Source: an uncultured Acidobacteriota bacterium (lineage in GTDB: Bacteria > Acidobacteriota > Thermoanaerobaculia > UBA5066). From it: a stretch of DNA of 64,000 nucleotides. Each line of letters opens with the position of its first letter. Position 1 is the stretch's first letter. This document shows positions 29,978-49,746 of this stretch, piece by piece. The stretch covers positions 14,708 through 78,707 of the forward strand of contig CAWIIN010000003.1 in the NCBI GenBank assembly GCA_963836285.1, in the 5' to 3' direction. The translations under genes and the position numbers were made by a program. The notes under the pieces were generated by a model. It worked only from the letters and a program-made list of their open reading frames with translations, made no database searches and was not told the origin of the DNA.

Positions 29978-30005
29978 CGCGACGCGCCTGGCACGGCGAC
30001 GGCGG

Positions 30006-31178
30006 CTATCGTCGCTCGGCTCGGTACGCCCGCCCTTCCTGACGCACGATCTCGATCAGGTTGCCCATCGCGAGATTCATGTCGACGACGTGCAGGCCCC
30101 AGCTCTCGAGGACGCGGCCGTCCACCACAACGTCGCCCGTGATCGCCTCCGTGCGCGCCCCGCCCGGCGTGGGGTGAATCGTAACGGCGAGGTAGTTGTG
30201 GCTGCCGTTGCTGCGGCACTCGGCGCTGAGAAGGCCCGGCGCCCGGACGAACGGCGTGACGATCGGCCTCGGTGGGTTCGTCCAGGGGCCGAGCGCCAGT
30301 CCGTCGACGACGGGAGTCTCCGTGCCGGACGCGAGGTAAGCGTGGAGCGGTCCGGTCCCTCCGCCGAGCGCCGCCGGATTCACGCACGCCGCCTCAAGCC
30401 CCGGACCGGCCGAGGCCCCGAACATCCGCGCATCGGCGGGCGGGGGGCTGTTCGCACGGAACGACGCGAAGTTGATCGCGCAGCCCAGCTGACGGGCGGA
30501 CCGGCACAGGGGGATGGACTTGAAGTCGCCGCCCACGTCCTTGCCCACGGGCACCTGAAGTCGGTAGCCGGCCAGGATCACCGACAGGATCCTGCGCTGG
30601 ACCGGCCTGCCGTCGATCTCGTTCCGAACGAGCTCGGCCAGCACGAGCGAGCCCTGGGAATGGCCGATCAACGCGACGCCGCGCCCGCGGTTGTCGTGCG
30701 TGAGGTAATGGTTCCACGCGTCCTTCACGTCGTCGTAGGCCAGGGCACGGTCCACGGCCACCGGACGGCCCCTCAGGTTGGAACGGAGCGCCGTGAGGGT
30801 CGCTTGACGATAGACGGGCGCGTAGGGCCGGCAAACCGAAGCGAAGCGGGCGAACTGCTGGCCGACCACCGCGATCTGCTGCTTCTGGACCTTCATCGTC
30901 GCGTTGCCGCCCGGGTCCAGCGAGACGGTGGGATAGACGTAGAAGCAGTCGATCGGGGCGTCGGGATCCGCGTGAAACCGCTCGAGACGCGTCGAGCCAT
31001 CGGCACGAATCACGGTCGCGTCCTGATCGGATCGACCGCATGCATCCGTCGCCCGCCCGGGGCGGCAGAGCCACGCCGCCGGATCGGAATAGTCGTTGGG
31101 GCCGGACGTTTCGACCTGAGCGGGGGCCTGCCGGCAGCCAAGCAGGACGGCGATCAGGAGCACGGCCGGGAATCTCAT
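30006..31178 (-). CDS. DUF3089-family alpha/beta hydrolase lipoprotein
   Basis: Start MRFPAVLLIAVLLGCRQAP (lipobox). The GHSQGS nucleophile elbow is present. The long N-terminal extension of the ORF is rejected. Confidence 0.65.
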   Translation of the reverse strand: MRFPAVLLIAVLLGCRQAPAQVETSGPNDYSDPAAWLCRPGRATDACGRSDQDATVIRADGSTRLERFHADPDAPIDCFYVYPTVSLDPGGNATMKVQKQQIAVVGQQFARFASVCRPYAPVYRQATLTALRSNLRGRPVAVDRALAYDDVKDAWNHYLTHDNRGRGVALIGHSQGSLVLAELVRNEIDGRPVQRRILSVILAGYRLQVPVGKDVGGDFKSIPLCRSARQLGCAINFASFRANSPPPADARMFGASAGPGLEAACVNPAALGGGTGPLHAYLASGTETPVVDGLALGPWTNPPRPIVTPFVRAPGLLSAECRSNGSHNYLAVTIHPTPGGARTEAITGDVVVDGRVLESWGLHVVDMNLAMGNLIEIVRQEGRAYRAERR

Positions 31179-31204
31179 GAACGCCTCGTGGACCCGCCCT
31201 GCCT

Positions 31205-32527
31205 TCAGTACAGGACGATTCCCAGCGGGATGACGACGAGCAGGGCGGCGAGCGTCGCGAGGACGTGGCCGATGAAGATATGCTTGTAGGCTTGGCGGTG
31301 CGTCAGCCCGGCGACCGCGAGCATGGTGATCACGGCGCCGTTGTGCGGCATGGCATCGAAGCACCCCGCGGACATCACGATGATCCTGTGGACGAGATCC
31401 GGGCTCAGGCCCAGGGCCAGGTACTTGGGCGCCAGCGTCTCCAGGACGATTCCCATGCCGCCGGAGGCGGAGCCGGTGATCGCCGCCATGATGTTCGTGG
31501 CGACCGAGAGAGAGATGATCGGAGGCATGGAAAGGGTCAGAAGCCATGCGGACACGACGCTGAAGCCGGCCGTAGCCGCGATTGCCATCCCGTAGCCGAC
31601 GTCGGCGCAGGTATTGATGATCGGAATCACGGTGTTTGCGGCGCCCCTGCTGATGGTGTCCGGCAGGCTGGTGAACCGCCTCCAGAACAGGATCATCGAG
31701 ACCAGAATCCCTATGCCGAGGGCATAGATCACATCGACCTTCACCGCGGGAACGTTCAGAAAGACGAGAACGGCCATCATCGGAACCAGGCTAAGCCAGA
31801 CGTTGGGCATGTCTCCCGGGTCGACGGCCGTCGCGGCGGGCACGCCGGAACCGCCGGGCGGGACATAATGCTCGCCTTCCCTCTTGAATCTGTTCACACA
31901 ATACTTCATGTAGAGGACGTTCAGCACGAACACGACGAGAGCGCCGACCAGACCCAGTACGGGGGCTGACGCGGGCGTGGAGTTCATGTACTTCGTGGGC
32001 ATGAGGTTCTGGATCTGTGGCGTGCCTGGGATCATCGTCATGGTCATGGAGGCGGCGCCGAAGACGAAGGAAAGGATGAACAGATGCCAGGGGATGTCCG
32101 CTTCCTGCCAGAGGTGCCGGGCGATGGGGAGCACCGTGAAGATGACGACGAAGAGACTCACGCCGCCATAGGTCAGGACCATGGGGACCAGGGAGAACGC
32201 GATCAGAACACGCAGCGGCTTGTCGGCGTCGCCGCCGACGAGCTTCAGGATCGCCCGGGCGACGGACCGGGCCGCGCCGCTGTCTTCCATGAACTTTCCG
32301 AAGAGAGTGCCCATCAGAAAGATGAGATAGAACTTGCGGGCGTAGTTGGTAAACCCGGTCATGTACGGCCCGGTCAACGTCTGAAGGACGTTCAAATCGG
32401 AGAAGATCGCCGCGATGATGGCCGCCAGCGGCGCGAGGATGATGATGTGCCACCCTCGCAGCGCCAGCACGATGATGAAAACCAGGGACACGACGATGCC
32501 AAGAGTGCTAATAGTGCCCGCGTCCAC
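31205..32527 (-). CDS. GntP family permease (gluconate/sugar-acid:H+ symporter)
   Basis: About 12 TM helices with typical GntP/DsdX-family patterns (GGVSLFVV..., SAGCFDAMPHNGAVITMLAVAGL). Confidence 0.8.
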   Translation of the reverse strand: MDAGTISTLGIVVSLVFIIVLALRGWHIIILAPLAAIIAAIFSDLNVLQTLTGPYMTGFTNYARKFYLIFLMGTLFGKFMEDSGAARSVARAILKLVGGDADKPLRVLIAFSLVPMVLTYGGVSLFVVIFTVLPIARHLWQEADIPWHLFILSFVFGAASMTMTMIPGTPQIQNLMPTKYMNSTPASAPVLGLVGALVVFVLNVLYMKYCVNRFKREGEHYVPPGGSGVPAATAVDPGDMPNVWLSLVPMMAVLVFLNVPAVKVDVIYALGIGILVSMILFWRRFTSLPDTISRGAANTVIPIINTCADVGYGMAIAATAGFSVVSAWLLTLSMPPIISLSVATNIMAAITGSASGGMGIVLETLAPKYLALGLSPDLVHRIIVMSAGCFDAMPHNGAVITMLAVAGLTHRQAYKHIFIGHVLATLAALLVVIPLGIVLY

Positions 32528-32554
32528 GCTCGATCCCTCCGGGTCTCGGCACCG

Positions 32555-34216
32555 TCAGGGCCGGGCCGCCGCCGACCATGATGCAAGCAGCTTCTCGTAC
32601 AGGTCGCAGAACTCCGGGCGGATGCCGGACCCGGCGCGGATCGTGTCGCCGAACTCCAGGAATCCCTCCTTCCCGCTCGTGTAGCGAGGCCAGGCCGGCA
32701 GAGAATCCCCGTTCGGATCCCCGGTGGCCGCGAAGCGTACCCAGGCCGCGCTCATCGCGTCGGCAAGCTTCTGGTCCCAGGGCTTGCGCGGCATCCACGG
32801 CACGGCGGCGAGGGTGTCCCATACGTACGGGATCTCGATGGCATGGTGGGCTCCGAGCTTCTCGCCCCCCGGCCCCTGCGGCGCGCGGCTGAACAGGTAG
32901 ACGTAGGCCGGGCTGCCCGCGCGCGTCGTCCGCTCCGCAATGAACCGCGTCGGGCCGACGTAGTACCAGTCGGGGCTATAGCGGTCCACCGCCGCGGCCG
33001 CCTCGGCGTCGGTCGTCGCCGGGTAGAGTTCCAGCACCCGATCGGCGAGCGGGCCCCAGACGGCCCGTATCACCTTGCGAAAGTCGTCGAGTGTCGGGTT
33101 GGGCCAGTATTGGCGCAGGGTCGTCCACTCGTCCTTGTTGAAGCCGATGAGGACGGGCACCTTGCGCTGCTCGCCCCTGTCGAAGATCTTCGCGGTCGCC
33201 CTCGGAAACACCCAGCCGTCCACATTGGGCGCGTTGCCCGTGAGCTTCCGGGTGCGAAGCCAGGCGCGGCGAAGATCCTCCGGGGACACCGCGCGCATCG
33301 CCGCGAGGACGTCCTTCGACCCCGCCACTCCGAGCGCCTCCTCGAAGCTCTTGCCCAACGCCTCCGCCTCGCCGAGCGGGCGGAAGTCGCTCACCGCGTA
33401 GCCCCCACTCTCGATCACGGCGCGATGGAAGAGCCCGCGCGCGAGAGGCGTTGCCAGGAGGTAGGTGATGTTCGTGCCGCCCGCCGACTCGCCGAAGACC
33501 GTCACGCGCCCCGGGTCCCCGCCGAAGGCCGCCGCGTTCTCCTGCACCCACTTCAGCGCGGCGATCTGGTCGAGGAGCGCGTAGTTGCCGGACGAGCCGT
33601 GTCCGGACTCGGCGGTCAGCGCCGGGTGGGCGAGGAAGCCGAACAGGTTGAGGCGGTAGTTGAGCGAGACGACCACCACTCCCTTGCGCGCGAGGTTCGC
33701 TCCGTCGGTCTGAAGCCCCACGGCCGTGCCGACGGCGTTCGCCCCGCCGTGAATCCAGACCATCACGGGCTTGAGGTCCTTGCCGCCCAGGTTCGAGGTC
33801 CAGACGTTGAGGAACAGGCAGTTCTCGCTGCTAGGCCCGGGGAGCGGAACCAGTTTCGGGTCCTGGCCGAGAGTCTCGGCGATGTACCGATAGAAGTAGT
33901 TGCCCTCGACTTCCTGGACGCAGGACGGGCCGAACTTCGTGGCCTGCTGCACGCCCGGGCGCGGCGTGTGCGGCGCCGGTGGCTTCCATCGCAAATCTCC
34001 GACGGGCGGCGCCGCGTAGGGAATCCCACGAAAGACTGCTTCGGAGGTGCCCGTGCCGACGTAGGCGCCGACGAGCTGCTCGCCGTTCGCCACGACCGTT
34101 GGCGCCGTAGGCGTCGAGACTTGCGGGGCAACCGGCGGGGCCGTCGAGCAGGCCAAGGAGCCGATCACGAGCGCCGCGCCGGCGCCGGACCGCCAACGGG
34201 GGCGCGGTTTCGCCAC
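32555..34216 (-). CDS. type-B carboxylesterase/lipase family lipoprotein
   Basis: The GESAGG nucleophile elbow is present, along with the conserved N-terminal FRGIPYAAPP and the HG oxyanion region WIHGGAN. The preferred GTG start gives the lipoprotein signal VAKPRPRWRSGAGAALVIGSLAC. The alternative ATG is at 34279. Confidence 0.8.
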   Translation of the reverse strand: MAKPRPRWRSGAGAALVIGSLACSTAPPVAPQVSTPTAPTVVANGEQLVGAYVGTGTSEAVFRGIPYAAPPVGDLRWKPPAPHTPRPGVQQATKFGPSCVQEVEGNYFYRYIAETLGQDPKLVPLPGPSSENCLFLNVWTSNLGGKDLKPVMVWIHGGANAVGTAVGLQTDGANLARKGVVVVSLNYRLNLFGFLAHPALTAESGHGSSGNYALLDQIAALKWVQENAAAFGGDPGRVTVFGESAGGTNITYLLATPLARGLFHRAVIESGGYAVSDFRPLGEAEALGKSFEEALGVAGSKDVLAAMRAVSPEDLRRAWLRTRKLTGNAPNVDGWVFPRATAKIFDRGEQRKVPVLIGFNKDEWTTLRQYWPNPTLDDFRKVIRAVWGPLADRVLELYPATTDAEAAAAVDRYSPDWYYVGPTRFIAERTTRAGSPAYVYLFSRAPQGPGGEKLGAHHAIEIPYVWDTLAAVPWMPRKPWDQKLADAMSAAWVRFAATGDPNGDSLPAWPRYTSGKEGFLEFGDTIRAGSGIRPEFCDLYEKLLASWSAAARP

Positions 34217-34286
34217 GGGACACGAGTTCTGGAGTCGAGTGGGGTCTGACACGTTGGATCTCCTCCTCGGAACGCGCATTGCGAGG

Positions 34287-35216
34287 TCATGCCATCTCGG
34301 GAGTCAACGCCACCGGGATTGCTTCTGCCGCGAGTTTCGCTATGGCCGTGGCCACCTCGGCGCCCGAGTCGAACGGCCGCGCGCCGGCGAGGTCGGCGAT
34401 CTCCTCGTACCGTGCCGCCACGTCCTCGGCGGTCGCGTGCGGGCCGAGGACGACCCCGCGGGCCTCGACGATGGCGACGCGGGCGAAGTAGGACCCGCCG
34501 GCCTCGAGCACATGTCCGTTCGGGCTGCCCTCGCTGCAGAGGTAGACGACCGCCGGCGTCACGCGCTCGGGGGCCACGGCGCGCAGCACCTCGGGCGGCC
34601 ACAGGCCTTCGGTCATACGGGTTGCGGCGGTGGGGGCGACGCAGTTGACCCTGATGCCGTACTTCTTGACCTCGAGCCTGAGCGTATTCATGAACCCGAC
34701 GAGGCCCATCTTGGCGGCGGCGTAGTTCGTCTGGCCGAAGTTGCCGTAGAGGCCCGAAGAGGAAGTCGTGAAGACGATTCGACCATAGCCCCTTTCCTTC
34801 ATCACGGGGAGGGTCGCCTTCGTCATGTTGACGCTGCCCATGAGGTGGACGTCAACGACCTTCTGAAAGTCGTCCAACTCCAGCTTGGCGAACGTCTTGT
34901 CGCGCAGGATGCCGGCGTTGTTGACGAGGATGTCCACCGACCCGAACCGGCCCACGGCCTCGTCCACCATGCGCTGCGCCGCGGAACGGTCGGTCACGCT
35001 GTCGTGGTTTGCGACGGCGATTCCGCCGGCCGCCGTGATTTCATCCGCCACCGACTGAGCGACACCCGCGGAGCCGCTCGTGCCGTCCAGAGCCCCGCCA
35101 AGGTCGTTCACGATCACTTTCGCGCCGCGCCGCGCGAGTTCCAGGGCATAGCATCGGCCCAGGCCACCGCCCGCTCCCGTCACGATCGCCACTCGTCCGT
35201 CGAATCGAATGCTCAC
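34287..35216 (-). CDS. SDR family oxidoreductase (3-hydroxyacyl-CoA dehydrogenase/MFE-2-like)
   Basis: GTG start. Motifs TGAGGGLGRCYALELARRGAKV, NNAG, and the YAAAKMGLVGF catalytic Tyr-Lys. Confidence 0.8.
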   Translation of the reverse strand: MSIRFDGRVAIVTGAGGGLGRCYALELARRGAKVIVNDLGGALDGTSGSAGVAQSVADEITAAGGIAVANHDSVTDRSAAQRMVDEAVGRFGSVDILVNNAGILRDKTFAKLELDDFQKVVDVHLMGSVNMTKATLPVMKERGYGRIVFTTSSSGLYGNFGQTNYAAAKMGLVGFMNTLRLEVKKYGIRVNCVAPTAATRMTEGLWPPEVLRAVAPERVTPAVVYLCSEGSPNGHVLEAGGSYFARVAIVEARGVVLGPHATAEDVAARYEEIADLAGARPFDSGAEVATAIAKLAAEAIPVALTPEMA

Positions 35217-35306
35217 TCGTCGTTCCTTTCAGCAGGAATCCCCGGCACGTCGATGTCCCTCGAAGCCAGAGCCTGCGCGTCTCGATCGCCCCGATCTCTG
35301 AGCGTC

Positions 35307-35335
35307 ACATAACTTGACCGGCCTACCGGTACACT
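35307..35335. promoter_or_regulatory. palindromic operator ACCGGCCTACCGGT (copy 2) in the divergent SDR/CoA-transferase promoter
   Basis: CACATAACTTGACCGGCCTACCGGTACACTTATATATTAA. The palindrome is at 35317-35330, followed by an AT-rich TATATATTAA stretch. It matches copy 1 at 24521-24549 in 24/28 positions. Confidence 0.6.
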
Positions 35336-35406
35336 TATATATTAACCCGCAATAGAAACATGGAGTCAAGCGGCATCGAACTCCACCGTCGAAGCGACCA
35401 GGGAGG

Positions 35407-36459
35407 ATGGGTGTGACCGAAACAGACGGCAAAGTCATGGGCGTCAAGGACGCCATCGGCCGATTTGTCCACGATGGCGATCAACTGGTGATCGGCAACT
35501 ACACCGTCGGTTCCTGCGCGGAGCTGGTGTACGAGGTGGCCCGGCAGAAGAAGAAGGGACTCACGCTCTTTTCGCAATCCGGAATTTTCGACGTGGAAGT
35601 TCTCATCGGCGCAGGCTGCGTGGACAGACTCGTCACCGCGTACGTGATGCGCGCCGGCGGCAAGAAGGGCGGCTCCGCGGCCGAACGTGCGCTGAAGGCC
35701 GGAACCCTTCTGCTCGAGGACTACACGAACTTCGACTACAACGCGCGGCTCGTCGCCGGCATGCACGGCATGACCTTCATTCCGGTTCTCGAAGGCATCA
35801 TGGCCACCGACCTCTTCCGGAAGAGGGGCTTCATGGGCGAAAACAAGTTTCGCGTCATCGAATGCCCGTACACCGGCAAGAAGGTTCTGACGGTGCCCGC
35901 GGCCAATCCCGACGTCTGCATCGTTCACGTGCAGCGCGCCGACAAGTTCGGCAACGCCCAGTACTGGGGCGCGCTGGGAAGCATCGCGGCGGCCGCGCTC
36001 GCGAGCACGCGCATCATCGTCTCCTGCGAGGAGATCGTCGACCACGAGATCGTTCAGTCGAGTCCGGCACTCACCCTGATTCCCGCCTATCGCGTCAACG
36101 CGGTGGTGGAAGCTCCCTGGGGCGCGCATCCCACCGAAGTGCTCGGCTACTACAACCTCGATTCCGCGATGTACGGTCTGTTCACGAAGGCCGATTCCAC
36201 CGCCGAAGGGCTGCGCGCCTGGATGGACGAATGGGTGTACGGCTGTGAGAACCGCGCGGCCTACATCGACCGTTACATCGGCAAGTTCGGGAGCTGCGCG
36301 CTCAACAGCCTCAAGGCCAAGCCCTACTATTCCGCGCCGGCGAACTACGGCGCGGCCGTGACCTCCCGCTGGGACCGCGACGGCAGGGAGATCTTCACGG
36401 GGCTGACCCTGCCCGAGATGGAGACGATCCTGAAAGAAAGGGGGCAGCTCTATGAGTAA
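35407..36459 (+). CDS. CoA-transferase subunit A (glutaconate/3-oxoacid CoA-transferase family)
   Basis: The characteristic subunit-A pattern is present (GNYTVGSCAELVYEVARQKKKGLTL..., VPAANPDVCIVHVQRADKFGNA). The start is either 35407 or ATG 35437. Confidence 0.8.
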   Translation: MGVTETDGKVMGVKDAIGRFVHDGDQLVIGNYTVGSCAELVYEVARQKKKGLTLFSQSGIFDVEVLIGAGCVDRLVTAYVMRAGGKKGGSAAERALKAGTLLLEDYTNFDYNARLVAGMHGMTFIPVLEGIMATDLFRKRGFMGENKFRVIECPYTGKKVLTVPAANPDVCIVHVQRADKFGNAQYWGALGSIAAAALASTRIIVSCEEIVDHEIVQSSPALTLIPAYRVNAVVEAPWGAHPTEVLGYYNLDSAMYGLFTKADSTAEGLRAWMDEWVYGCENRAAYIDRYIGKFGSCALNSLKAKPYYSAPANYGAAVTSRWDRDGREIFTGLTLPEMETILKERGQLYE

Positions 36460-37285
36460 GCCGTACACCCTTCAGGAGCTGCTGATCATCGCCGTCGCCA
36501 AGGAAATCCACGATCACGAAAACGTGATCCTCGGCATCGGGATTCCGACGACCGCGGGCGCCCTGGCGAAAGCGCTCTACGCGCCCAACGCGACGCTCAT
36601 GATGGAGTCCGGGATCATCGACTTCCAACCCCTGCTGCCCTTGAACCACATTGCCGACGCACACGCGTGTCGGGGCTTCTCGTATGGCACGGACCTGTTT
36701 TCCACCTTCACCATGACCTACCGCGGGTTCGTGGACGTGTGCTTCCTCGGCGTCGGACAGATCGACAAGTTCGGCAACGTCAACACGACCGTGATCGGCG
36801 ACTACGACAGGCCGACCCTCCGCCTGCCAGGCTCGGGCGGAGCCCCCGACTTCTTCTCCTATGCGAAGAGAACCGTCCTCACGATGCTCGGCGGGAACTT
36901 CGTGAACAAGCTGGATTACTTCACGTCGCCCGGACATCTCGACGGGGGGGACAGCCGCGAGAAATCCGGCCTCTTCCCGAAGGGATCGGGCCCTTCCATG
37001 GTGCTGACCACGAAGGGAGTCTTTCGATTCGATCCCGTGACCAAGGAAATCTACCTGTCGCAGGTCCACCCGAAGGTCACGGTGGAGGCCGTGAAGAAGG
37101 ACGTGCCGTGGGAGCTGAAGGTCGCCGATGATCTCTCCGTGACGCCGCGCCCGACGGACGAGGAAATCGCATTCATCCGCAATTTCGCTCCGAACATGTC
37201 CATGAGCCGGGAGCTCATGCTGGAGCTGACTCTGGCGAACATGAAAAGGAAGATGAAGAGTGAGGGGCGGGGAAATCCTGCCTAG
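36452..37285 (+). CDS. CoA-transferase subunit B
   Basis: 8-nt overlap with subunit A (ATGAGTAA). LGIGIPTTAG and the catalytic-Glu region MMESGIIDF are present. The stop TAG lies inside direct-repeat copy 1. Confidence 0.85.
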   Translation: MSKPYTLQELLIIAVAKEIHDHENVILGIGIPTTAGALAKALYAPNATLMMESGIIDFQPLLPLNHIADAHACRGFSYGTDLFSTFTMTYRGFVDVCFLGVGQIDKFGNVNTTVIGDYDRPTLRLPGSGGAPDFFSYAKRTVLTMLGGNFVNKLDYFTSPGHLDGGDSREKSGLFPKGSGPSMVLTTKGVFRFDPVTKEIYLSQVHPKVTVEAVKKDVPWELKVADDLSVTPRPTDEEIAFIRNFAPNMSMSRELMLELTLANMKRKMKSEGRGNPA

Positions 37286-37291
37286 CGACAG
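37264..37291 (+). repeat. 28-bp direct repeat, copy 1 (GGGGCGGGGAAATCCTGCCTAGCGACAG)
   Basis: Identical in 27/28 positions to 39414-39441. It contains CTAG, which is the stop codon of the CoA-transferase B gene. Confidence 0.8.
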
Positions 37292-37380
37292 GCCACCGAC
37301 GGCTCCAGCTCGTTGCGGCCCTTTTTCAGCCGGGGGCGGGAACAGGACGTGCATCCTCGCCCGGAAGGGCGCGCATTTCG

Positions 37381-37791
37381 ATGAAGACTTTCAATCGGAT
37401 CCGCAGAAGCTGGCGGCTTCTCGCGGGAGGAAAGCCCGGCGACCGCTTCGAGCGCTTCTACCGGAGCCAGCAGGAGGGCCGCACGCCCGCGCGGAAGGTG
37501 CTCTCCATCCTCATCGGGTTCGCGATCGCCGCCGCCGGGATCGTCCTCCTCCCCGCCCCCGGCCCCGGCATGCTGGTCGTCGCTTTGGGGCTGGGACTCC
37601 TGGCGCGCGAATTCCTGGCCGTCGCGCGCGCTCTCGACTGGCTCGAGCCCAGGCTCCGGAGGACCATCGTGGCGGCGGTGCGGCTCTGGAGGAAGTCCTC
37701 GCCGCTGGGTCGAGCCGCTCTGGTCTTGGCCGCCACCGCCCTCGCGAGCGTTGCGGCGATCGGCAGCTACGCGCTGATGTTTGCGGACTGA
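37381..37791 (+). CDS. PGPGW-domain small transmembrane protein
   Basis: The LLPAPGPGMLVVALGLGLLAREF motif is diagnostic of the PGPGW family. It has two TM segments. Confidence 0.7.
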   Translation: MKTFNRIRRSWRLLAGGKPGDRFERFYRSQQEGRTPARKVLSILIGFAIAAAGIVLLPAPGPGMLVVALGLGLLAREFLAVARALDWLEPRLRRTIVAAVRLWRKSSPLGRAALVLAATALASVAAIGSYALMFAD

Positions 37792-37821
37792 CGTCTCGCC
37801 GGCGTCGCATAGACTCCGAGG

Positions 37822-39348
37822 ATGCGAACAGGGCTCTCCCGTTGGACCCGAGCACTCGCGGCCATCGTCCTTGCCTTCGGAGTTGCGCCCGCCGACGCGG
37901 CCCCTGCCGTCGCGCCCCGCCCGCGCGAGAAGGCCCAGGTCGTCGTCGTGGGCGCGGGGCTCACGGGACTGACGACGGCCTACGAGCTGCGCAAGGGCGG
38001 CGTCGACGTCCTCCTCCTGGAGGCGGCCCCGCGCGCGGGCGGGCGCATTCAGACCGTGACTTTCGCGGACGGGATGCACGTCGAGGGTCACATGGAGGAA
38101 TACTGGGAGCGAAGTCCGGCATACGCCCTGCTGAAGGAGCTGAAGGTGCCGTTGCTGGACGACGTGGCCCACTCCAGCGTGAGGATCGGCGGGAAGATCT
38201 ATCCCTACCGGGGCGAGGGCGACCGCGACACCTACCTGCGCGGCATCTTCTCGGAGCCTGAGCGCGAGGCCTTCCTGCGCTGGAACGCCAAGGTCTGGGG
38301 GCTCCACGAGAAGCTCATTGCGGCCGACCATAGCGGCCACGACATCACCGATCCCGAGCTGCTCGAGCTTCAGAAGGTGAGCTTCGCCGAGTTCGTGAAG
38401 CGCGACGGTCTGCCCGAGAAGGTCAGCGAGTGGATCCGGGTGACCGTGGAGCCGGAGATGGCCATCGAATGGGACGCCATTGCCGCCCTCGACGGCGTCG
38501 ACGAAATGCGCCTGTTCCTCGACTCCCCCGAGGGTTTCGGAGAGAAGAACTACCACGTGAAGGGCGGCAACAGCGGGTTCATTCGCGCGCTGATGGCAAA
38601 GGTCGGCTCCGAGCGTGTCGTGACCCAGGCTCAGGTGACCGCGATCGAGCATGGTGCCGACGGGGTCCGCGTGCGCTACCTGCATCAGGGCGCCCGCTAT
38701 CGCGAGGTGTGCGCGCGCGCCGTCGTCGTGACCGTGCCGCTCTATCAGCTGCGACGCATCCAATTCGTGCCGCCGCTCTCTCACGACAAGCGCAAGGCCA
38801 TCGAGACCACGCGCTTCGGCGCGTACATCAAGGTGCACATTCGCATCGGCGCCGAGGCGGCGAAGCTCTGGGAGCCGGGGGGCGAATCGCTCCTGACCCT
38901 CCTCAGCGACTCTGCGGCCGGCAGCATCTACGACGCGACGGATTTCCAGCCGCACGGCGCCAAGGCCGACCGCTACCTGACGCTCCTCGTTCACGCGCGG
39001 TTCGCTCGCGAGATGCTCGGGATGAGCGCGGACGAGATGCGGGAGCACGCCATCCGCAGCCTGGATGCGCTGTTCCCGGGAGCCGGCGCCCACGTGCGGC
39101 TCGTCGAGCTGTTCGTCTACCCGACGGCGGTGGCCTACTGGCCGCTGGAGCTCGGACGGTCGCGATTCGACGGCCTCGCGGCCGAGCTGCGCCGGCCCGA
39201 AGGGGCCGTGTGGATCGGCGGGGACACCACCGAGAACAGCCACTCGGAGGGGTCCGTGCAGGCCGCGCTGCGCATGTCCAGGGAGATCATCGCGCGGAAA
39301 GCCACCCTGTCGAAGCCGTTGCCGGCGCCTGCCGCCGCGCCCCGCTGA
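37822..39348 (+). CDS. flavin-containing amine oxidase family protein, secreted
   Basis: Signal peptide MRTGLSRWTRALAAIVLAFGVAPADA. FAD dinucleotide-binding motif VVVVGAGLTGLTTAYEL...EAAPRAGGRI. The amino-oxidase C-terminal region (GGDTTENSHSEGSVQAALRMS) is present. Confidence 0.8.
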   Translation: MRTGLSRWTRALAAIVLAFGVAPADAAPAVAPRPREKAQVVVVGAGLTGLTTAYELRKGGVDVLLLEAAPRAGGRIQTVTFADGMHVEGHMEEYWERSPAYALLKELKVPLLDDVAHSSVRIGGKIYPYRGEGDRDTYLRGIFSEPEREAFLRWNAKVWGLHEKLIAADHSGHDITDPELLELQKVSFAEFVKRDGLPEKVSEWIRVTVEPEMAIEWDAIAALDGVDEMRLFLDSPEGFGEKNYHVKGGNSGFIRALMAKVGSERVVTQAQVTAIEHGADGVRVRYLHQGARYREVCARAVVVTVPLYQLRRIQFVPPLSHDKRKAIETTRFGAYIKVHIRIGAEAAKLWEPGGESLLTLLSDSAAGSIYDATDFQPHGAKADRYLTLLVHARFAREMLGMSADEMREHAIRSLDALFPGAGAHVRLVELFVYPTAVAYWPLELGRSRFDGLAAELRRPEGAVWIGGDTTENSHSEGSVQAALRMSREIIARKATLSKPLPAPAAAPR

Positions 39349-39413
39349 GCGAGACGAGCGGCCGACGTTCCCGGTGCGCTCGAACGGGCATTTGGCGTGC
39401 CGCGTCACGTGCG

Positions 39414-39441
39414 GGGGCGGGCAAATCCTGCCTAGCGACAG
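39414..39441 (+). repeat. 28-bp direct repeat, copy 2 (GGGGCGGGCAAATCCTGCCTAGCGACAG)
   Basis: 27/28 match to copy 1. The CTA inside it is the stop of the minus-strand acyl-CoA synthetase gene. Confidence 0.8.
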
Positions 39442-41684
39442 AGCGCCGCGAGCGCGCGCGAGGCCCGGTCGATCTTGCGGTAGACCGGGATGCCGCCGCG
39501 CTGGAGGACCATGACGAAGTCGTCGTAGAGGCGGCCGGAGTCGACGTTCACGACGACGGGCTTCTGCGTTTCCCGGAAGAGGCGCAAGAGCTCCTGCGCG
39601 AGCGACTCCCTCGAGAAGAGGTTCTCCGCGTGCGCGCCGTACGGGTCCGGCGCGAGTATGTCGAGCGCGGGCGTGACGGGGATCGGAGAGACGAGGAGCA
39701 TGTCGACGCCGGGGTCGTCCAGCATCGCGGCAGCCGCCTCGACGAACGCGGGCGTGTCCGCCATCGGCGTCGCGTCGACGGGGTTCGCCGCGTGCGCGAT
39801 CCCGGGGAGGCACGCCTTCAGGCGCGCGGCGGTCTCGCCCGAGAACACGGCAGGCGCGAGGCCGTAGAGCTTGTCGAGGACCGCCGAGCACTCGAAGCCC
39901 GCGTTCGAGAGCACCGCGAGGCGGCGTCCCCCGGGCGGCCTCTCGCCGAGCATCGTGTGGACCTTCGTGAAGTCCTCGAACATGTCGAGCGTCTGCGCGA
40001 CCTGGACGCCCGCACCCTCGAGGAGAGCCTTCGCGACCGCATAGTCGCCCGCGAGAGACGCCGTGTGGCTCCGCGCGGCCTCGGCGCCGAGCGCGGTCTT
40101 CCCCGCCTTGAAGACGATCACCTGCCGGCCCTCGGCGGTGACGCGACGCGCGACTCTCACGAACCTCTCGCCGTCGCCCGGCGCGAACCCCTCGATGTAG
40201 AAGGCGAGAAGCCGCACGGTCGGATCGTCCGCGAAGAACTCGAGGAAGTCCGCGGCCGTGAGGTCCATCTGATTTCCATAGGAGATGGACGCGCGCGGGA
40301 AGACGATTCCGTCGAGGTTGCTCGTCAGGGAGACGAGGTACGCGCCGCTCTGCGACACCGCGACGAGCGAGTCGCCCCGCGCGTCGTGGAAGGGCAGCTT
40401 GTACTGCGGCAGGAAGAACGTGTTGTACTGGCGCTTCGACACGATCCCGAGGCAGTTGCCGCCGACGAGGACGGGGCCGCCGTCGGGACGCGCGTGCGCG
40501 TCGGCGAGCGTCTTGCGAAGGGCGGCCTCGAGATCGCCGCGGCCCGCCTCGCCGAAACCTCCCGGGATCAGGATCATCGACTCGGCCTTCCCGGCCGCGA
40601 GCGCGGCCACGACCTCGACCGCGGCGGGTGCCGGCACGGAGACGACCGCGAGGTCGACCTTCTCGGGAAGGGCCGCGACGGACGGGACGCACGGGACGCC
40701 GTCGATAGCCTTCTCTTTCGGATGCACGGCCCAGAGCTTGCCGTACGCGATGCCGTCGGACTGCTTGAGGTTTTTCAGGATGATGCGGCCGGGATTCGCA
40801 CTGGACGCGGAGGCGCCGATGACGGCCGCGCTCTTCGGAGCGAGGAGCGAAGAGATCTTCGAAAGGGGGCGCGCGACGCCCGCCGCGCGCCGGAGGGAGA
40901 ACTTCGCCTTGCCGTCCGCGGCGACCCAGCGGCCGTCCGCACAGAGCAGGATTGGATTGACTTCCAGCTCCTCGAGAGTCGGATGGCCGGGAGCATTCGA
41001 GGGGGAGAAAGAAGAAAGATGCTTAGAAAGGCTTTCGAGCAGCGAGGCCACCGCATCGAGCTCGAGGGGCGCCTGCGCTCGGGCCCTATTACCTTCGAAG
41101 AAAATCTTCAGCGCCGGCTGCTTGTCCACCGCGGCCTGGAGGCCTTGCTTCACCTCTCCGGGCCTGAGGATCGCGGTCGACGCGTTCGCGGCGCCCTGCG
41201 TGAGCTCGCCATACCACTCCGTCAGCAGCCCTCCGAGCCCGAAGACCAGCACCGGCCCGAATGCCGGGTCGTGCTTGAACGAGAGGAGCGCCTCGGCGGC
41301 GGGCGTACCCGTGGCGGGAACGAGCTTCTCGACGACGAGGATGCCGGAAAGAAACGCCTCGGGCGCCCGGTGGGAGACGTCCGTCCAGATCCTCTGCGCC
41401 GCAGCGAGAACGGACGCGGGAGATTTCTTGGAAAGTGAATATCCGCCGACGTCGCTCTTGTGAAGGATGCGCTCCGCCGCGACCTTGAGGACGACCTCGT
41501 CCCCCTCGCCCGTATGACCTTCTAAGAAATCTTCTAATGCCCTTTCGACCTTCTTCGGCTCGCCCGGCCAGAAGAAATGCCTCGGCACGTCAAAGCCCGC
41601 CCGCGCGAGCAGCGCGTAGACCTCGTGCTCGAGGAGCGCGGCCCGGCCCGGCGCAAGGACCGAAGCGGCCTCCCGCGGCGTCAT
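39432..41684 (-). CDS. acd: acetate/acyl-CoA ligase, ADP-forming (NDP-forming acyl-CoA synthetase, fused beta-alpha)
   Basis: Start MTPREAASVLAPGRAALLEHEVYALLARAGFDVP (ATP-grasp). The CoA-binding and ligase-CoA domains are present (AVIGASASSANPGRIILKNL, GNCLGIV, phospho-His region SHTASLAGD). The ATG overlaps the stop of the small Cys4 ORF (ATGA). Confidence 0.85.
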   Translation of the reverse strand: MTPREAASVLAPGRAALLEHEVYALLARAGFDVPRHFFWPGEPKKVERALEDFLEGHTGEGDEVVLKVAAERILHKSDVGGYSLSKKSPASVLAAAQRIWTDVSHRAPEAFLSGILVVEKLVPATGTPAAEALLSFKHDPAFGPVLVFGLGGLLTEWYGELTQGAANASTAILRPGEVKQGLQAAVDKQPALKIFFEGNRARAQAPLELDAVASLLESLSKHLSSFSPSNAPGHPTLEELEVNPILLCADGRWVAADGKAKFSLRRAAGVARPLSKISSLLAPKSAAVIGASASSANPGRIILKNLKQSDGIAYGKLWAVHPKEKAIDGVPCVPSVAALPEKVDLAVVSVPAPAAVEVVAALAAGKAESMILIPGGFGEAGRGDLEAALRKTLADAHARPDGGPVLVGGNCLGIVSKRQYNTFFLPQYKLPFHDARGDSLVAVSQSGAYLVSLTSNLDGIVFPRASISYGNQMDLTAADFLEFFADDPTVRLLAFYIEGFAPGDGERFVRVARRVTAEGRQVIVFKAGKTALGAEAARSHTASLAGDYAVAKALLEGAGVQVAQTLDMFEDFTKVHTMLGERPPGGRRLAVLSNAGFECSAVLDKLYGLAPAVFSGETAARLKACLPGIAHAANPVDATPMADTPAFVEAAAAMLDDPGVDMLLVSPIPVTPALDILAPDPYGAHAENLFSRESLAQELLRLFRETQKPVVVNVDSGRLYDDFVMVLQRGGIPVYRKIDRASRALAALCR

Positions 41685-41956
41685 GCCCCGGGGAATCCCC
41701 GCATCTGGAGCTGCATCGCCTCGAGGCCTTCCAGCATGCGGGTCACCTGGACGCACTGGTCGCAGTTCGCGTGGACGCTCGCGCACGGCACGCCGTCGGC
41801 CATGTGCTCGGGACACTTCGGCTCGCGCGCGAGCTCGATGAGCCCCTCGACGAGCGCGTTCACGCGCGTCCTCAGCGCGGACTCGGGGACCTCGCGCAGA
41901 GTGTTCACGAGGTGCCACTCGGCAGGGGTCAGGCTGTGCGACTTGTTCGTTTCCAT
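41681..41956 (-). CDS. small Cys4 protein, uncharacterised family (paralogue B)
   Basis: 91 aa. METNKSHSLTPAEWHLVNTLRE...LVEGL...CPEHMADGVPCASVHANCDQC...LEGLEAM...GFPGA. GGAGGGG lies 5 nt upstream. It is 11 nt downstream of korB, and its stop overlaps the acd start. Confidence 0.65.
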   Translation of the reverse strand: METNKSHSLTPAEWHLVNTLREVPESALRTRVNALVEGLIELAREPKCPEHMADGVPCASVHANCDQCVQVTRMLEGLEAMQLQMRGFPGA

Positions 41957-41967
41957 GGTCCCCTCCG

Positions 41968-43389
41968 TCAGTGACCGGGCGCCGCGACGGACTTGACGCC
42001 CCAGGCGAACGCTTCCTCGTTGAGCGGGATGAGCGCGCACTTGTCCTTGAGCGCCTGCCTCAGCGCCGTCTTGAACGATTCCTCGGGGAAGATCTTCGTC
42101 GCGGCGCAGAGCGCGCCCAGCGCGACGACGTTCTTGACCATCGCCTTGCCGAGGTCGACCGCGATCTCGGTGAACGGGACGCCGACGACTCTCACGCCGT
42201 CGGCAACCTTCGGGACGTCGTGGATCACGGAGCTGTCGTACACGATCGTCCCGCCGGGGACGACGTCCGGCGCGAATTTCGCGAGGCTCGGCGCGTTGAA
42301 GGCGACGAGGATCCTCGGGTGCGGCGAGGCCGGCGAGAGGACCTCGTCCTCCGCGACGTGGACGTCGGCGTACGACGTGCCGCCGCGCGACTCCGGCCCG
42401 TAGCTCGGGATGTGCGTCGCGTCGAAGCCCTCGGCGATGGCGGCCCGCGCGATGAGCATTGCAGCCGTCTGGGCGCCGTCGCCGCCCGCTCCCGCGAGCT
42501 TGAGCGCGACGTCCTTGCCGCCGAGATGCTCCGGAAAGCCCTTCGCGAAGCGCGGCGGCTTCTCGGCGGAGGCGCCGACGAGGCCCGTGAGGCGCTCCGC
42601 GTCGAAGCTCGGCGGCGGGACCTTCGCGTGCGGCTCGACGACGACGTCCTTCTTCACGCCGAGCGGGAAGACCGGGAGCATGCACTCCTTCACCCATTTC
42701 TCGGTCTCCTCGGGCGTCATCCCGAGGTGCGTCGGGCACTCGGCGAGGACCTCGACGAACGCGAAGCCGCGGTTCTCGACCTGGAGCCGCATCGCCTTCT
42801 TGATCGCCTTCTGGGCCTTGATCCGCTGCTTGGCGTCGTAGAGGGCGACCCTCTCCACGTAGACGGGCCCGTCGAGGCCGGCGATCAGCTCGGCCATCTT
42901 CATCGGCAGGCCCATCGCGGCCGTCCGGCCGTACGGGCTCGTCGCGCTCTTCTGGCCCATGAGCGTCGTCGGCGCCATCTGGCCGCCCGTCATCCCGTAG
43001 ATCGCGTTGTTCACGAAGATCACGGTGATCGGGATTCCGAGCTGCGCCGTCGAGACGATCTCCGCGAGACCGATCGAGGCGAGGTCGCCGTCGCCCTGGT
43101 AGCTCACGACGATCGACTCCGGGTTCGCGAGCTTGTGGCCGATCGCGACGGCGGGCGCGCGGCCGTGGGCCGCCTGCGAGTTGCCGACGTCGAAGTAGTA
43201 GTAGAGGAAGACGGAGCAGCCGACGGGCGAGATCGCGACCGTGCGGTCCTGGATCCCGAGCTCTTCGATCGCGTCGGCGAGGTACTTGTGGGCGAGGCCG
43301 TGGCCGCAGCCCGGGCAGTAGTGCGTCGCATGGGCCTTCAGGCCCTCGCCGCCGGAGTGACGCTCGAAGTTCTCGTAAAAGACGCTCAC
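41968..43389 (-). CDS. korB: 2-oxoacid:ferredoxin oxidoreductase beta subunit (TPP-binding) fused to a gamma domain
   Basis: GTG start overlaps the korA stop (GTGA). TPP motif GDGDLASIGLAE...VFVNNAIYGMTGGQ. The C-terminal ~180 aa are POR/KOR gamma-like (GAGGDGAQTAAMLIARAA). Confidence 0.85.
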   Translation of the reverse strand: MSVFYENFERHSGGEGLKAHATHYCPGCGHGLAHKYLADAIEELGIQDRTVAISPVGCSVFLYYYFDVGNSQAAHGRAPAVAIGHKLANPESIVVSYQGDGDLASIGLAEIVSTAQLGIPITVIFVNNAIYGMTGGQMAPTTLMGQKSATSPYGRTAAMGLPMKMAELIAGLDGPVYVERVALYDAKQRIKAQKAIKKAMRLQVENRGFAFVEVLAECPTHLGMTPEETEKWVKECMLPVFPLGVKKDVVVEPHAKVPPPSFDAERLTGLVGASAEKPPRFAKGFPEHLGGKDVALKLAGAGGDGAQTAAMLIARAAIAEGFDATHIPSYGPESRGGTSYADVHVAEDEVLSPASPHPRILVAFNAPSLAKFAPDVVPGGTIVYDSSVIHDVPKVADGVRVVGVPFTEIAVDLGKAMVKNVVALGALCAATKIFPEESFKTALRQALKDKCALIPLNEEAFAWGVKSVAAPGH

Positions 43390-44795: not shown

Positions 44796-44848
44796 GGAGG
44801 ACCCTCCGAAACGAAATTTGACGGCCTCGCGCACAATTCCGCCAGAGA

Positions 44849-44863: not shown

Positions 44864-44874
44864 TCTCAAGTCCT

Positions 44875-47057: not shown

Positions 47058-47058
47058 C

Positions 47059-49746
47059 TCAACGCGTCTCGATGCCTTCGGCGATCTTCACGTCGAGCGT
47101 CTGCTTCACCTTCGTCTTCCCGTACGTGAGCGTCACGGTGTACGTGCCCGGCCGCACGAACCTCTTGCCCTCGCTGCTGGACTCGGAGAGAAACTCCTTC
47201 GTCGGCTTGAGGTCCCACGACACGCGGCCGAAGCCGGGCGTCCCGGGCGCCTCGAGCTTCGCGACGGGCACGCCGCCGGGCCCGTCGACCGTGATCTTCA
47301 CGTCGTCGACCGTGAGCGCGCGGATCCAGAACGTGAAGACCGCCCCCTCGGGCGGGTTCTTCCCACGGAAGACGGCCTTCCCGTTCCACTCGCTCCAGCC
47401 CGAGAAGCGGTTCGTGCCGAACGCCGGCTTCGGCGGGAAGAGGTGGGCGTCCTCGGCGGCGATCTCCGGCGTGAACGCCTCGAGGGCGGAGACGTCGTCC
47501 GCGATGTAGAGACTCCGCCCGTGCGTCGCGATCACGAGGTCGCGCTCCCTCGGGTGGATCGCGAGGTCGTCCACCTCGACGCTCGGGAGGCGCCCGAACC
47601 TCGTCCAGCTCGTGCCGCGGTCGAGCGACACGTAGAGGCCGAACGCCGTCCCGGCGAAGAGGAGCGACGGGTTCTTCGGGTCCTCGCGGATCACCTTCAC
47701 GGGGCCGTTCGCGGGCAGGTTCCCGGCGACGCTCGTCCACGTGCGGCCGAGGTCGGCGGTCCGGAACGCGAGAGGCGCGTCGTTGCCGGAGCGGTACGCC
47801 TCGACGGCGAGGTAGGCCGCGTTCGCGTCGTGGGCGCTCGGCTCGATGCGCTCGATCCACTCGCCCTTCGCGGCGGGAGGCAGCGACGCCGTGAGGTCCG
47901 TCCACTTCCCGCCGCCGTCGCTCGTGACCCAGAGCTTGCCGTCGTCCGTCCCCGCCCAGAGAAGGCCCGCCTGAAGCGGCGACTCCGCGAGCGCGTAGAC
48001 GACGCCGTACGTCTCGGCGCCGCTGCCCGTCGCGGTCGTCTTCTCCGGGTCCCGCGCGGACAGGTCCGGGCTCACCGGCGACCACTCCTCGCCGCGCGCC
48101 GTGAGGCGGAAGACGCGGTTGCCGCCGAGGTAGAGGACGCCCTTCTCGTGGCGGCTCGCGAAGAGCGGCGCGCACCAGTGGAAGCGGAACGCGGGGTGCC
48201 CCTCCTCCGGCTGCGGGCGGAGGCTCTTCCTCTCGCCGCTCGCGAGGTCCATCCGGAAGACGTTTCCGCCCTGGGACTCGGCATAGACGACGCCCGGCTC
48301 GGCCGGGTCGAACGCGTTCGAGAAGCCGTCGCCGCCGCCGAGGTTGATCCAGTCCGCGTTGCGGATCCCTTCCTTCGTCCCCGTCGCGGACGGCCCGATC
48401 CAGTTCAGGTTGTCCTGGAGACCACCCGCGATCCGGTACGGCGTCGCGTCGTCGAGCGCGATGCGGTAGTACTCGCCCGCGGCGATCCGGTCGAGGTGGG
48501 CCCAGTTCTTCCCGCTCTCGAAGCTCTGGTAGACGCCGCCGTCCGTCCCGAGGACGAGGTGCTTCGGGTTCTTCGGGTCGATCGCGAGCGCGTGTCCGTC
48601 CGGATGGACGGCCTCGCCGAGGTCCTCGCGGAAGCTCTGCCCGCCGTCGTCCGAGACGTGGAGCGCGATCCCGAGGACGTACACGCGCTTGTCGTTCACG
48701 GGATCGACGCGGATCTGGCTGAAGTAGAACGGGCGCGGGTCGAGCGGGCTCGTGCGCGTCCACGTCTCGCCGCCGTCCTCCGACCGGAAGACGCCCCCGC
48801 GTTTCGTGCGCAGCTCGCGGAGCGGCGTCGGCCCGCCCTCGGCCGTCTGCACGATCGCGTACACGACCTTCGGGTTCGCGCGGAAGACGTCGAGGCCGAC
48901 GCGCTGGAGGGAGCCCGGCAGCCCGCCGCCGAGCTTCTTCCACGTCCCGCCGCCATCCGTCGACTTGAAGATCCCGCCCGCATCCTTCCCATCCGACGCC
49001 TCGGGCCCCGACGCGAACGACCACGGCGTCCTCGCGCGCGCGTAGAGCGCCGCGTAGACGACGTCCGGGTCCGAGGAGTCGAGAACGACGTCGCATGCGC
49101 CGACCTTCTGCGCGAGCGCCCCGGACCCGCCGAGGACACGTGTCCACGTCGCGCCTCCGTCCGTCGTCTTGTAGAGGCCGCGCTCGCCGCCGGACGTCCA
49201 GAGGCCGCCGAGCGCCGCGACGTACGCGATCTTCGGGTCCTTCGGGTGGACGGCGATCCGCGCGATCGCGCGGGACGTCGTGAGGCCGACGTGCGCCCAC
49301 GTCGCGCCGCGGTCCGTGGAGCGGTAGATGCCGTCGCCCCAGCCGGCCGTGTTGCGGTCCGTCCCCTCGCCGGTCCCGACCCAGACGGTCTTCGGGTCGG
49401 CCGGCGAGACGGCGACGGCACCGACGGAGGCAACGCTCTCCTTCTCGAAGACGGCCTGGAACGTCGCCCCGTCGTTCGCCGTGTGGAACGCGCCGCCCGT
49501 CGCGAGCGCGACCCAGAACCCGGCCGGGTTCTCGGGGTCGAGCGCAATGTCGGTGACGCGCCCGCCCATTACGGCGGGCCCGATGGACCGCGCCGCGAAG
49601 GCGCGAAGCCCGGCTTCCGGCACGGCGCGCGCCGGCGAGGGGGGAGCCAGCGCGGGCGCCGCCTTCTTCGGGGCCGAGAGTCCGGCCGAGGGGAAGGCGA
49701 GGACGAGCAGGCTGAGGGCGAACGGGCGGAAGGACATGCGAGTCAC
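47059..49746 (-). CDS. secreted BNR/Asp-box repeat protein (sortilin/VPS10 or GH74-like beta-propellers)
   Basis: Signal peptide MTRMSFRPFALSLLVLAFPSAGLSAP. There are many S-x-D-x-G-x-T-W Asp-box repeats (STDRGATW, TTDGGATW, STDGGGTW, SEDGGETW, SDDGGQSF…). Confidence 0.8.
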   Translation of the reverse strand: MTRMSFRPFALSLLVLAFPSAGLSAPKKAAPALAPPSPARAVPEAGLRAFAARSIGPAVMGGRVTDIALDPENPAGFWVALATGGAFHTANDGATFQAVFEKESVASVGAVAVSPADPKTVWVGTGEGTDRNTAGWGDGIYRSTDRGATWAHVGLTTSRAIARIAVHPKDPKIAYVAALGGLWTSGGERGLYKTTDGGATWTRVLGGSGALAQKVGACDVVLDSSDPDVVYAALYARARTPWSFASGPEASDGKDAGGIFKSTDGGGTWKKLGGGLPGSLQRVGLDVFRANPKVVYAIVQTAEGGPTPLRELRTKRGGVFRSEDGGETWTRTSPLDPRPFYFSQIRVDPVNDKRVYVLGIALHVSDDGGQSFREDLGEAVHPDGHALAIDPKNPKHLVLGTDGGVYQSFESGKNWAHLDRIAAGEYYRIALDDATPYRIAGGLQDNLNWIGPSATGTKEGIRNADWINLGGGDGFSNAFDPAEPGVVYAESQGGNVFRMDLASGERKSLRPQPEEGHPAFRFHWCAPLFASRHEKGVLYLGGNRVFRLTARGEEWSPVSPDLSARDPEKTTATGSGAETYGVVYALAESPLQAGLLWAGTDDGKLWVTSDGGGKWTDLTASLPPAAKGEWIERIEPSAHDANAAYLAVEAYRSGNDAPLAFRTADLGRTWTSVAGNLPANGPVKVIREDPKNPSLLFAGTAFGLYVSLDRGTSWTRFGRLPSVEVDDLAIHPRERDLVIATHGRSLYIADDVSALEAFTPEIAAEDAHLFPPKPAFGTNRFSGWSEWNGKAVFRGKNPPEGAVFTFWIRALTVDDVKITVDGPGGVPVAKLEAPGTPGFGRVSWDLKPTKEFLSESSSEGKRFVRPGTYTVTLTYGKTKVKQTLDVKIAEGIETR

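Follow-up and report, generated by a model that had tools for sequence, protein, structure and literature searches.

A 28-bp duplication across two overlapping stop codons marks the insertion of two ordinary genes between ctfB and acd in a Thermoanaerobaculia lineage

How do two ordinary genes come to stand between a pair of convergent genes without damage to either? The question is raised by a locus in a 64,000-nt stretch (the window, meaning the whole of the DNA analysed) of contig CAWIIN010000003.1 from an uncultured Thermoanaerobaculia bacterium (Acidobacteriota). In the window, ctfB, encoding subunit B of a CoA-transferase, converges on acd, encoding an ADP-forming acyl-CoA synthetase-like protein, and between them lie a gene for a small PGPGW membrane protein and a gene for a flavin-containing amine oxidase. 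The intervening segment is bordered by two 28-bp direct repeats, each of which includes the stop codon of one flanking gene. A reading made from the DNA letters alone (the sequence-only reading) had proposed that the pair was inserted with a long duplication or by recombination at a pre-existing site. Comparison with relatives shows that 2,122 bp entered the lineage of the window with a 28-bp target duplication, and that the ancestral site was one 28-mer with overlapping stops. On balance, we favour a single lineage-specific illegitimate insertion of a native Thermoanaerobaculia chromosomal fragment.

The two repeats are identical at 27 of 28 positions; the sole difference is at position 9, a G in copy 1 and a C in copy 2. 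A search of the window allowing up to 3 mismatches located exactly two copies, and none was found in 100 dinucleotide-preserving shuffles of the window. Copy 1 begins with 22 nt that encode the end of ctfB (the last six sense codons and the TAG stop at 37283-37285) and closes with 6 nt (CGACAG) that are left over, as non-coding sequence, from the 3′ end of acd. Copy 2 is built the other way round: its last 10 nt (CTAGCGACAG) encode the end of acd with the stop (CTA at 39432-39434), and its first 18 nt, a relic of the ctfB tail, are non-coding and carry one substitution, the C of position 9. The difference between the copies sits in this relic; the coding copy retains the base of the single 28-mer found in the relative L087 (see below). 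Direct reading and the mismatch search bear out the sequence-only reading as to the position and identity of the repeats, and the open reading frame (ORF) coordinates and the gene calls of a second strain agree with it that the TAG of copy 1 ends ctfB and the CTA of copy 2 ends acd.

The repeat-flanked structure is not an artefact of assembly, since two further assemblies carry it. L081 is a second strain from a different sample with 99.5% nucleotide identity to the window and has both repeats; L082 is an independent short-read contig, 100% identical, that spans the whole insert and both repeats. Other relatives lack the insert. A ctfB scan of GTDB species representatives gave one close relative, the metagenome-assembled genome (MAG) L001, also of the Thermoanaerobaculia. 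Contig L087 was found by listing the ctfB 90% cluster, in which protein P0252 has a tail (...KMKSEGRGDPA) of the same unusual type as that of the window. In addition, L088 was compared, and 24 contigs were read for P0121, the L001-type ctfB protein. Synteny between L001 and the window extends to either side of the insert (31205-37259 and 39436-47053, 84-88% nucleotide identity), L088 is likewise syntenic on both flanks, and blastn of the window against the relatives leaves a gap at 37260-39435.

The L087 junction (10834-10860) reads ...AAGAGCGA / GGGGCGGGGAGATCCTGCCTAACGACAG / AGCGCCGCGAGGGCCCGCGA, such that a single 28-mer joins ctfB straight to acd. This 28-mer is identical to that of the window at 26 of 28 positions, and its ctfB stop TAA overlaps the acd stop CTA (CTAA). 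Over the 20 nt that follow it, there are two differences from the acd gene of the window, both synonymous. In L001 and L088 (10826-10835 in each), the convergent genes are separated by 4 bp between the stops (TGAcgaaTCA and TGAcgagTCA, respectively), and in all 24 P0121 contigs ctfB and acd are back-to-back. The sequence-only reading had predicted relatives in which ctfB meets acd through one copy of the repeat, and L087 is exactly that; none of the relatives has the four-gene order, which would have spoken against the prediction had it lacked a repeat. The junction evolves fast. The ctfB product ends in KMKSEGRGNPA in the window and in SEGRGDPA in L087, the tails in L001 and L088 are TAGAIR and KSGATS, and most family members end in ...RKMKK (270 aa); the stops overlap in L087 and are spaced by 4 bp in L001 and L088.

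These comparisons also date the event. The nucleotide identity of ctfAB is 95.1% between the window and L087, 93.0% between the window and L088, and 92.4% between the window and L001; L087 shares 93.5% with L001 and 93.2% with L088. On these values, the genomes with an empty site are not a clade apart from the window, which makes a single insertion a more parsimonious history than several precise deletions. The non-coding relics of the ctfB and acd ends within the repeats must go back to a state with the two gene ends directly adjoining. Both copies have A at position 11 and G at position 22, where L087 has G and A; as these variants are shared and the one difference between the copies is confined to the relic, the duplication arose after the split from L087 and before the split of the two strains. 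The insertion is thus later than the L087 split (approximately 5% nucleotide divergence in ctfAB) and earlier than the split of strains that are 0.5% apart.

The insert consists of the two genes with 89 bp upstream of the PGPGW gene and 65 bp downstream of the oxidase gene. The pair is now co-oriented and lies downstream of ctfAB. Its GC content (0.694) equals the mean of the window, and GC at third codon positions (GC3) is 0.88-0.89 in the insert genes and 0.85-0.89 in the flanking genes; this match makes the insert native-like in composition. The comparison of GC and codon usage that the sequence-only reading had called for therefore does not mark the insert as foreign. The hydrophobic N-terminus of the amine oxidase is predicted to be a signal peptide, and the distant relatives of the protein in the PDB are amine, putrescine, and L-amino-acid oxidases. 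A scan for promoters and terminators gave nothing above expectation at the insert junctions.

Where did the fragment come from? The exact oxidase and PGPGW proteins were found in the ctfB/acd context only. The closest oxidase homologues (79-89% identity in amino acids, 78-89% in nucleotides) occupy at least four other contexts, making at least five in all, with homology extending beyond the ORF by about 17 bp upstream and 2-29 bp downstream. A convergent gene follows the oxidase in four of the five contexts. The blastn match with L083 reaches position 39377, into a decayed relic of the gene that is convergent with the oxidase there, and those with the other contexts stop at 39350-39360. The PGPGW gene adjoins the oxidase in none of the other contexts, nor in any of 22 contigs of the Joint Genome Institute (JGI) with oxidase homologues. 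The pair is thus neither a conserved nor a mobile unit, and the description of it as a two-gene module was not upheld. The number of contexts suggests that the amine oxidase gene has relocated unusually often among close relatives.

PGPGW homologues with 72-76% amino acid identity usually lie in a housekeeping context, TPR-Robl_LC7-PGPGW-FtsY-RibD (L095, L099). A closer homologue (79%, L089-L094) lies upstream of DUF6600 (minus strand), CsbD, and the oxidase. L089 and L083 overlap at 99.9%, which places the PGPGW and oxidase genes 2 kb apart on the same strand in that organism. The homology of the window to L089/L083 covers the PGPGW gene with 44 bp upstream (from 37337) and the oxidase gene with 29 bp downstream (to 39377). 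This gene order looks like the donor arrangement, and the insert looks like a fragment of an L089/L083-type chromosomal locus without DUF6600-CsbD, cut at arbitrary positions rather than a self-contained unit; its ends fall in a donor intergenic region and inside the 3′ end of a neighbouring gene. The donor neighbours were sought in the window. The upstream protein of L091, the 131-aa protein of L083, DUF6600, CsbD, Robl_LC7, FtsY, the AurF-like protein, PEPCK, and the flavin reductase are all absent from it, so the empty site of the donor could not be pinpointed.

Two features of the locus are those of mobile elements. As at a transposon, the 28-bp duplication borders the insert and is single-copy at the empty site (L087); as at an integrative element, the repeats rebuild the 3′ ends of the target genes, ctfB in copy 1 and acd in copy 2. 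Pfam and NCBIfam searches identified PGPGW and Amino_oxidase as the two ORFs of the insert, with no transposase, recombinase, or other ORF with a family match in 37292-39413, and there is no recombinase among the called neighbours over about 12 kb upstream and about 12 kb downstream. Between the 60-bp ends of the insert, the best local inverted match has a score of 7, which 219 of 500 shuffles also reach; inverted, the terminal 12-mers agree at 5 of 12 positions, and the repeat scan gave no inverted pair. The arms of the repeat match at 3 of 11 positions in the window and 4 of 11 in the L087 variant when aligned to the 11-6-11 architecture of Xer sites; on the same score, the arms of Escherichia coli dif match at 6 of 11. 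Integron core sites (GTTRRRY / RYYYAAC) are lacking at both insert boundaries, and no integrase is encoded among the neighbours. A CRISPR array or off-target spacer was rejected, as the repeat has just two copies, which are separated by 2,122 bp of coding DNA, and the neighbours include no cas genes. In an Rfam scan of 36900-39800, the single match was sub-threshold, to the eukaryotic pRNA, and was treated as chance. Cargo of a known mobile element was likewise rejected: the whole insert has no match to phages and only trivial FAD-domain matches to plasmids. No other occupant of the site was found in L087, L001, L088, or the 24 P0121 contigs, and no direct repeats of at least 11 bp flank the oxidase in L083-L086 or the PGPGW gene in L089, L091, L095, and L099.

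The repeat itself has no further features of a recognition site. The sequence-only reading had described a near-palindrome within it. In a 40-nt context, the best dyad has 5 paired positions, equalled by 614 of 1000 shuffles; DNA folding gave z scores about zero (+0.2 to +0.4) for three 48-nt contexts (both copies and the L087 site), and the bare 28-mer (z -1.4) folds no better than 22 of 200 shuffles, neither being significant. We therefore dropped the palindrome. Nor, in the data reached, does the 28-mer look like a common dispersed element similar to repetitive extragenic palindromes: beyond the two copies in the window, exact and degenerate searches gave none in the first 80 ctfB loci (exact search), the JGI metagenome contigs, or the viral contigs, and in the blastn set of oxidase relatives both copies occur in L081 and L082 only. 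The G-rich left end of the repeat has a third, partial copy (CGGGGGCGGGAA) at 37331-37342, 45 bp inside the insert and upstream of the PGPGW gene. Its GGGAAC is conserved upstream of PGPGW in L089 and L099, which indicates that it arrived with the donor; the likeness to GGGGCGGGGAA of the target may be a coincidence or may have aided pairing.

With no element ends, no recombinase, and no recurrence, we argue for a one-off illegitimate event, that is, one that we infer to have proceeded with no dedicated recombinase. Two routes would produce the observed structure. Two nicks 28 nt apart could have given a staggered break, the overhangs of which were filled in and ligated to a captured fragment. 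Alternatively, replication could have switched template, leaving after the 28-mer, copying about 2.1 kb of the donor, and re-entering 28 nt upstream. The donor would have been an L089/L083-like locus with the PGPGW and oxidase genes 2 kb apart on the same strand, and the DUF6600-CsbD segment would have been lost before or after the transfer. As the two stops overlap (CTAG), only an insertion that duplicates at least these 4 bp spares both gene ends, and selection would have favoured an event with a duplication.

Several points weigh against illegitimate insertion. We know of no spontaneous source of a 28-nt stagger. The donor breakpoints were not recovered. Nothing found matches the outermost parts of the insert (45 bp and 36 bp), and microhomology at the junctions is not assessable because of this. 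The sole microhomology is a weak GTGNG match, GTG(A/C)G, at the right junction, which would be compatible with a template switch but proves nothing. The cleanest empty site is a short stretch, as the L087 contig ends 20 nt past the 28-mer. The search for recombinases covered the insert and its called neighbours, and that of the source genome for the 28-mer covered the 64-kb window.

One alternative is a decayed site-specific integrative element resembling cis-mobilisable elements (CIMEs), in which the 28-mers would be attL and attR, a tyrosine recombinase would have used an attP identical to the ctfB/acd junction, and the integrase would later have been lost. Direct repeats of such length at a gene 3′ end, with the end rebuilt, are typical of att integration; CIMEs of 1.2-13 kb keep their att sites with recombination genes absent (PMC7563491); and the one mismatch falls within that half of copy 2 which the element would supply. 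We nevertheless regard this origin as unlikely, given that there is no integrase in or near the insert, no inverted-repeat core in the 28-mer, no other occupant of the site in the relatives, and no 28-mer in the ctfB loci, metagenomes, and viral contigs searched. The composition is native, the flanks resemble arbitrary cuts in a chromosomal locus, and both copies share the variants of the window lineage against L087, which is what an origin of both from the target would give. Another possibility is that a long-stagger enzyme encoded elsewhere, such as a transposase of the IS1634/IS1549 type or a casposase/Cas1-like integrase, moved the fragment in trans, which would make the 28 bp an enzymatic target-site duplication. 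The geometry is the classical one, and long duplications are documented: the insertion sequences (ISs) IS1549 and IS1634 generate direct repeats of 8-514 bp, compared with 2-13 bp for most IS families (PMC2266710), and casposons generate duplications of 14-35 nt by a staggered cut and fill-in (PMC4779613). Such an enzyme would, however, have had no terminal inverted repeats or conserved ends to recognise, the insert is single-copy in the available data, the oxidase occurs in four other contexts with no flanking repeats, and two other window-specific indels also lack them; we consider this quite unlikely. A more novel reading, that some as yet unrecognised activity acting in trans in Thermoanaerobaculia relocates ordinary chromosomal gene segments and leaves target duplications of about 28 bp, is in our view more doubtful again. 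The candidates for it may include a long-stagger integrase or transposase, or a route by reverse transcription or template switching; if it were true, the amine oxidase gene would be a frequent passenger and the ctfB/acd insertion the one case young enough to have kept its footprint.

The reverse history, in which the ancestor had the four-gene order with both repeats and recombination between these removed the insert in the relatives, is highly improbable. Deletion between short repeats does occur, and the window itself has lost a 102-bp TPR unit between repeats of about 18 bp. Loss in the relatives would nonetheless leave unexplained why relics of the ctfB and acd ends are duplicated 2.1 kb apart, and would need at least two independent precise deletions, L087 being closer to the window than to L001 or L088. 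The 27/28 identity of copies that are partly non-coding is too high for a duplication older than a divergence of 5-8%, and at neither the L001 nor the L088 junction is the sequence that of a simple one-copy 28-mer. Of the two routes named by the sequence-only reading, insertion with a long duplication fits the evidence better and site-specific recombination at a pre-existing site less well.

Table 1. Coordinates and assignment of features at the ctfB/acd locus and of related loci (positions are those of the window)
Feature	Position	Strand	Basis or remark
Direct repeat copy 1 (left target duplication)	37264..37291	.	GGGGCGGGGAAATCCTGCCTAGCGACAG; read directly and by mismatch search
Direct repeat copy 2 (right target duplication)	39414..39441	.	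GGGGCGGGCAAATCCTGCCTAGCGACAG; read directly and by mismatch search
Inserted segment, 2,122 bp	37292..39413	+	Absent in L087, L001, L088, and 24 P0121 contigs; blastn gap and junction reads
Upstream region that travelled with the PGPGW gene	37337..37380	+	Homologous to the region upstream of PGPGW in L089; blastn match starts at 37337
PGPGW/TIGR02611-like small membrane protein, 136 aa	37381..37791	+	PF09656 (1.3e-12); TIGR02611 below cut-off
Flavin-containing amine oxidase family protein, 508 aa	37822..39348	+	PF01593 (2e-38)
Decayed donor-locus relic	39349..39377	+	Resembles the 3′ end of the L083 gene that converges on the oxidase; blastn and alignment
ctfB, CoA-transferase subunit B, 277 aa	36452..37285	+	ORF; PF01144; L081 gene call
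acd, ADP-forming acyl-CoA synthetase-like, 750 aa (gene call)	39432..41684	-	ORF; PF13549, PF13380, PF13607; L081 gene call; TIGR02717 domain
BNR/Sortilin-Vps10 repeat protein gene, 895 aa, in the 2.7-kb insertion	47059..49746	-	GC3 very high (0.96)
Oxidase context: flavin reductase next			L084, L107, L108, L128
Oxidase context: between AurF-like protein and PEPCK			L085, L109, L110
Oxidase context: between CsbD and 131-aa protein			L083
Oxidase context: between outer-membrane protein and metallophosphatase			L086

The flanking genes have features of their own. Pfam assigns ctfA and ctfB to CoA-transferase subunits, and acd has an ATP-grasp/CoA-binding/Succ_CoA_lig architecture. The overall GC content of ctfAB (35413-37285) is 0.61-0.63 as compared to 0.69, with normal GC3 (0.85); the lower value arises at codon positions 1 and 2. 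The nearest homologues outside the Thermoanaerobaculia are in Smithella/Syntrophaceae MAGs (80-87% amino acid identity), which suggests an old inter-phylum transfer of this glutaconate-CoA-transferase-like operon. The reading frame past the ctfB TAG stays open for 32 codons (37286-37384), and closes with a TGA that shares bases with the PGPGW start (ATGA); were the TAG read through, ctfB would be lengthened up to that start. The open frame is probably a chance effect of high GC. In L088, acd and several neighbours (10833-13050) are called as fragments (142 + 409 + 42 aa, etc.), suggesting long-read frameshift errors or pseudogenisation. Upstream of the oxidase, a box TCGCCTACAATCC (TCGCATAGACTCC in the window) is located 7-8 nt from the ATG and is conserved in all contexts (window 37805-37821, L083 973-989, L084 337-353, L085 1094-1119). 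It resembles a -10 hexamer (TACAAT) and would be positioned for a leaderless or very short-leader transcript.

Other differences between the window and its relatives were noted. A second insertion specific to the lineage of the window, 2.7 kb at 47056-49772, is seen against L001 and L088 and carries the BNR-repeat gene. A segment between conserved flanks is replaced (window 28493-31205 for L001 3887-4754; window 29997-31185 for L087 4101-4732) and differs in sequence and length between the window and the relatives. At the window-versus-L001 indels 28493-31205 and 47053-49806, no flanking direct repeats of at least 9 bp were found. At 26833-26850, the window lacks one in-frame TPR unit (34 aa) of a sulfatase/TPR gene that is present in all three relatives (L001 2145-2231, L087 880-965, L088 2162-2247). 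The missing unit is bounded by the repeats (CGGGYCCTCGAGCT...), and its loss is an ordinary deletion between adjacent repeat units.

The locus offers a rare view, before and after, of chromosomal gene gain with no recognisable mobile element, with the empty site, the filled site, the probable donor order, and a relative date all at hand. The 28-bp duplication illustrates how two genes with overlapping stop codons can both survive an insertion at that point. Should long duplications recur in this clade, an integration activity that is still uncharacterised would be implicated. Taken alone, the event is mainly a well-documented illegitimate relocation, a one-off rather than a new system, and a warning against taking every repeat-flanked 'module' for a mobile element.

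How does the insertion compare with known systems? It is similar to the target-site duplications of transposons such as IS1549/IS1634 and the casposons in that the duplicated sequence is single-copy at the empty site and its length is within their range. Unlike those elements, it encodes neither a transposase nor a casposase, lacks terminal inverted repeats and a second copy, and carries as cargo two ordinary genes with arbitrary-looking borders. With CIMEs and other att-flanked islands, it shares a small cargo-only segment, direct repeats, and a position at the 3′ ends of genes that are left whole. The repeat, in contrast, lacks core inverted repeats, the site is empty in every relative found, and two convergent gene ends are rebuilt together; to our knowledge, there is no related integrase-bearing element for the ctfB/acd site. 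In the Xer-dependent integrative mobile elements (IMEX) and the pdif modules, 28-bp dif-like sites bound small modules that have no recombinase of their own. The exact length of the site and the recombinase-less small module are common to both, but the repeat described here has no 11-6-11 dyad, is GC-rich, is unlike the conserved XerD arm, and lies at a gene junction rather than at the terminus or a plasmid site.

Two further comparisons concern ordinary genes. The 'minimal mobile elements' of Neisseria are variable cassettes between conserved genes that are swapped by homologous recombination (PMC3787668). As in that system, a small cassette is present or absent between two conserved genes in close relatives; there, no duplication is needed or left, whereas the duplication at ctfB/acd records the primary insertion. 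In Arabidopsis, transposed non-transposon genes often lie between genic direct repeats with homology to a single-copy target in the sister species (Woodhouse et al. 2010, PMC2869330). In both, ordinary genes have been relocated and the repeats are homologous to single-copy genic sequence at the empty site, and we regard these eukaryotic genes as the closest conceptual parallel to the ctfB/acd insertion. The parallel is one of analogy, since a circular intermediate is proposed for the plant genes, and ours is one bacterial case with an exact 28-bp duplication over two stops. Every element family considered here fails in at least one defining feature. Illegitimate gene insertion is already known in kind; what is unusual at ctfB/acd is the long duplication that spans two overlapping stop codons.

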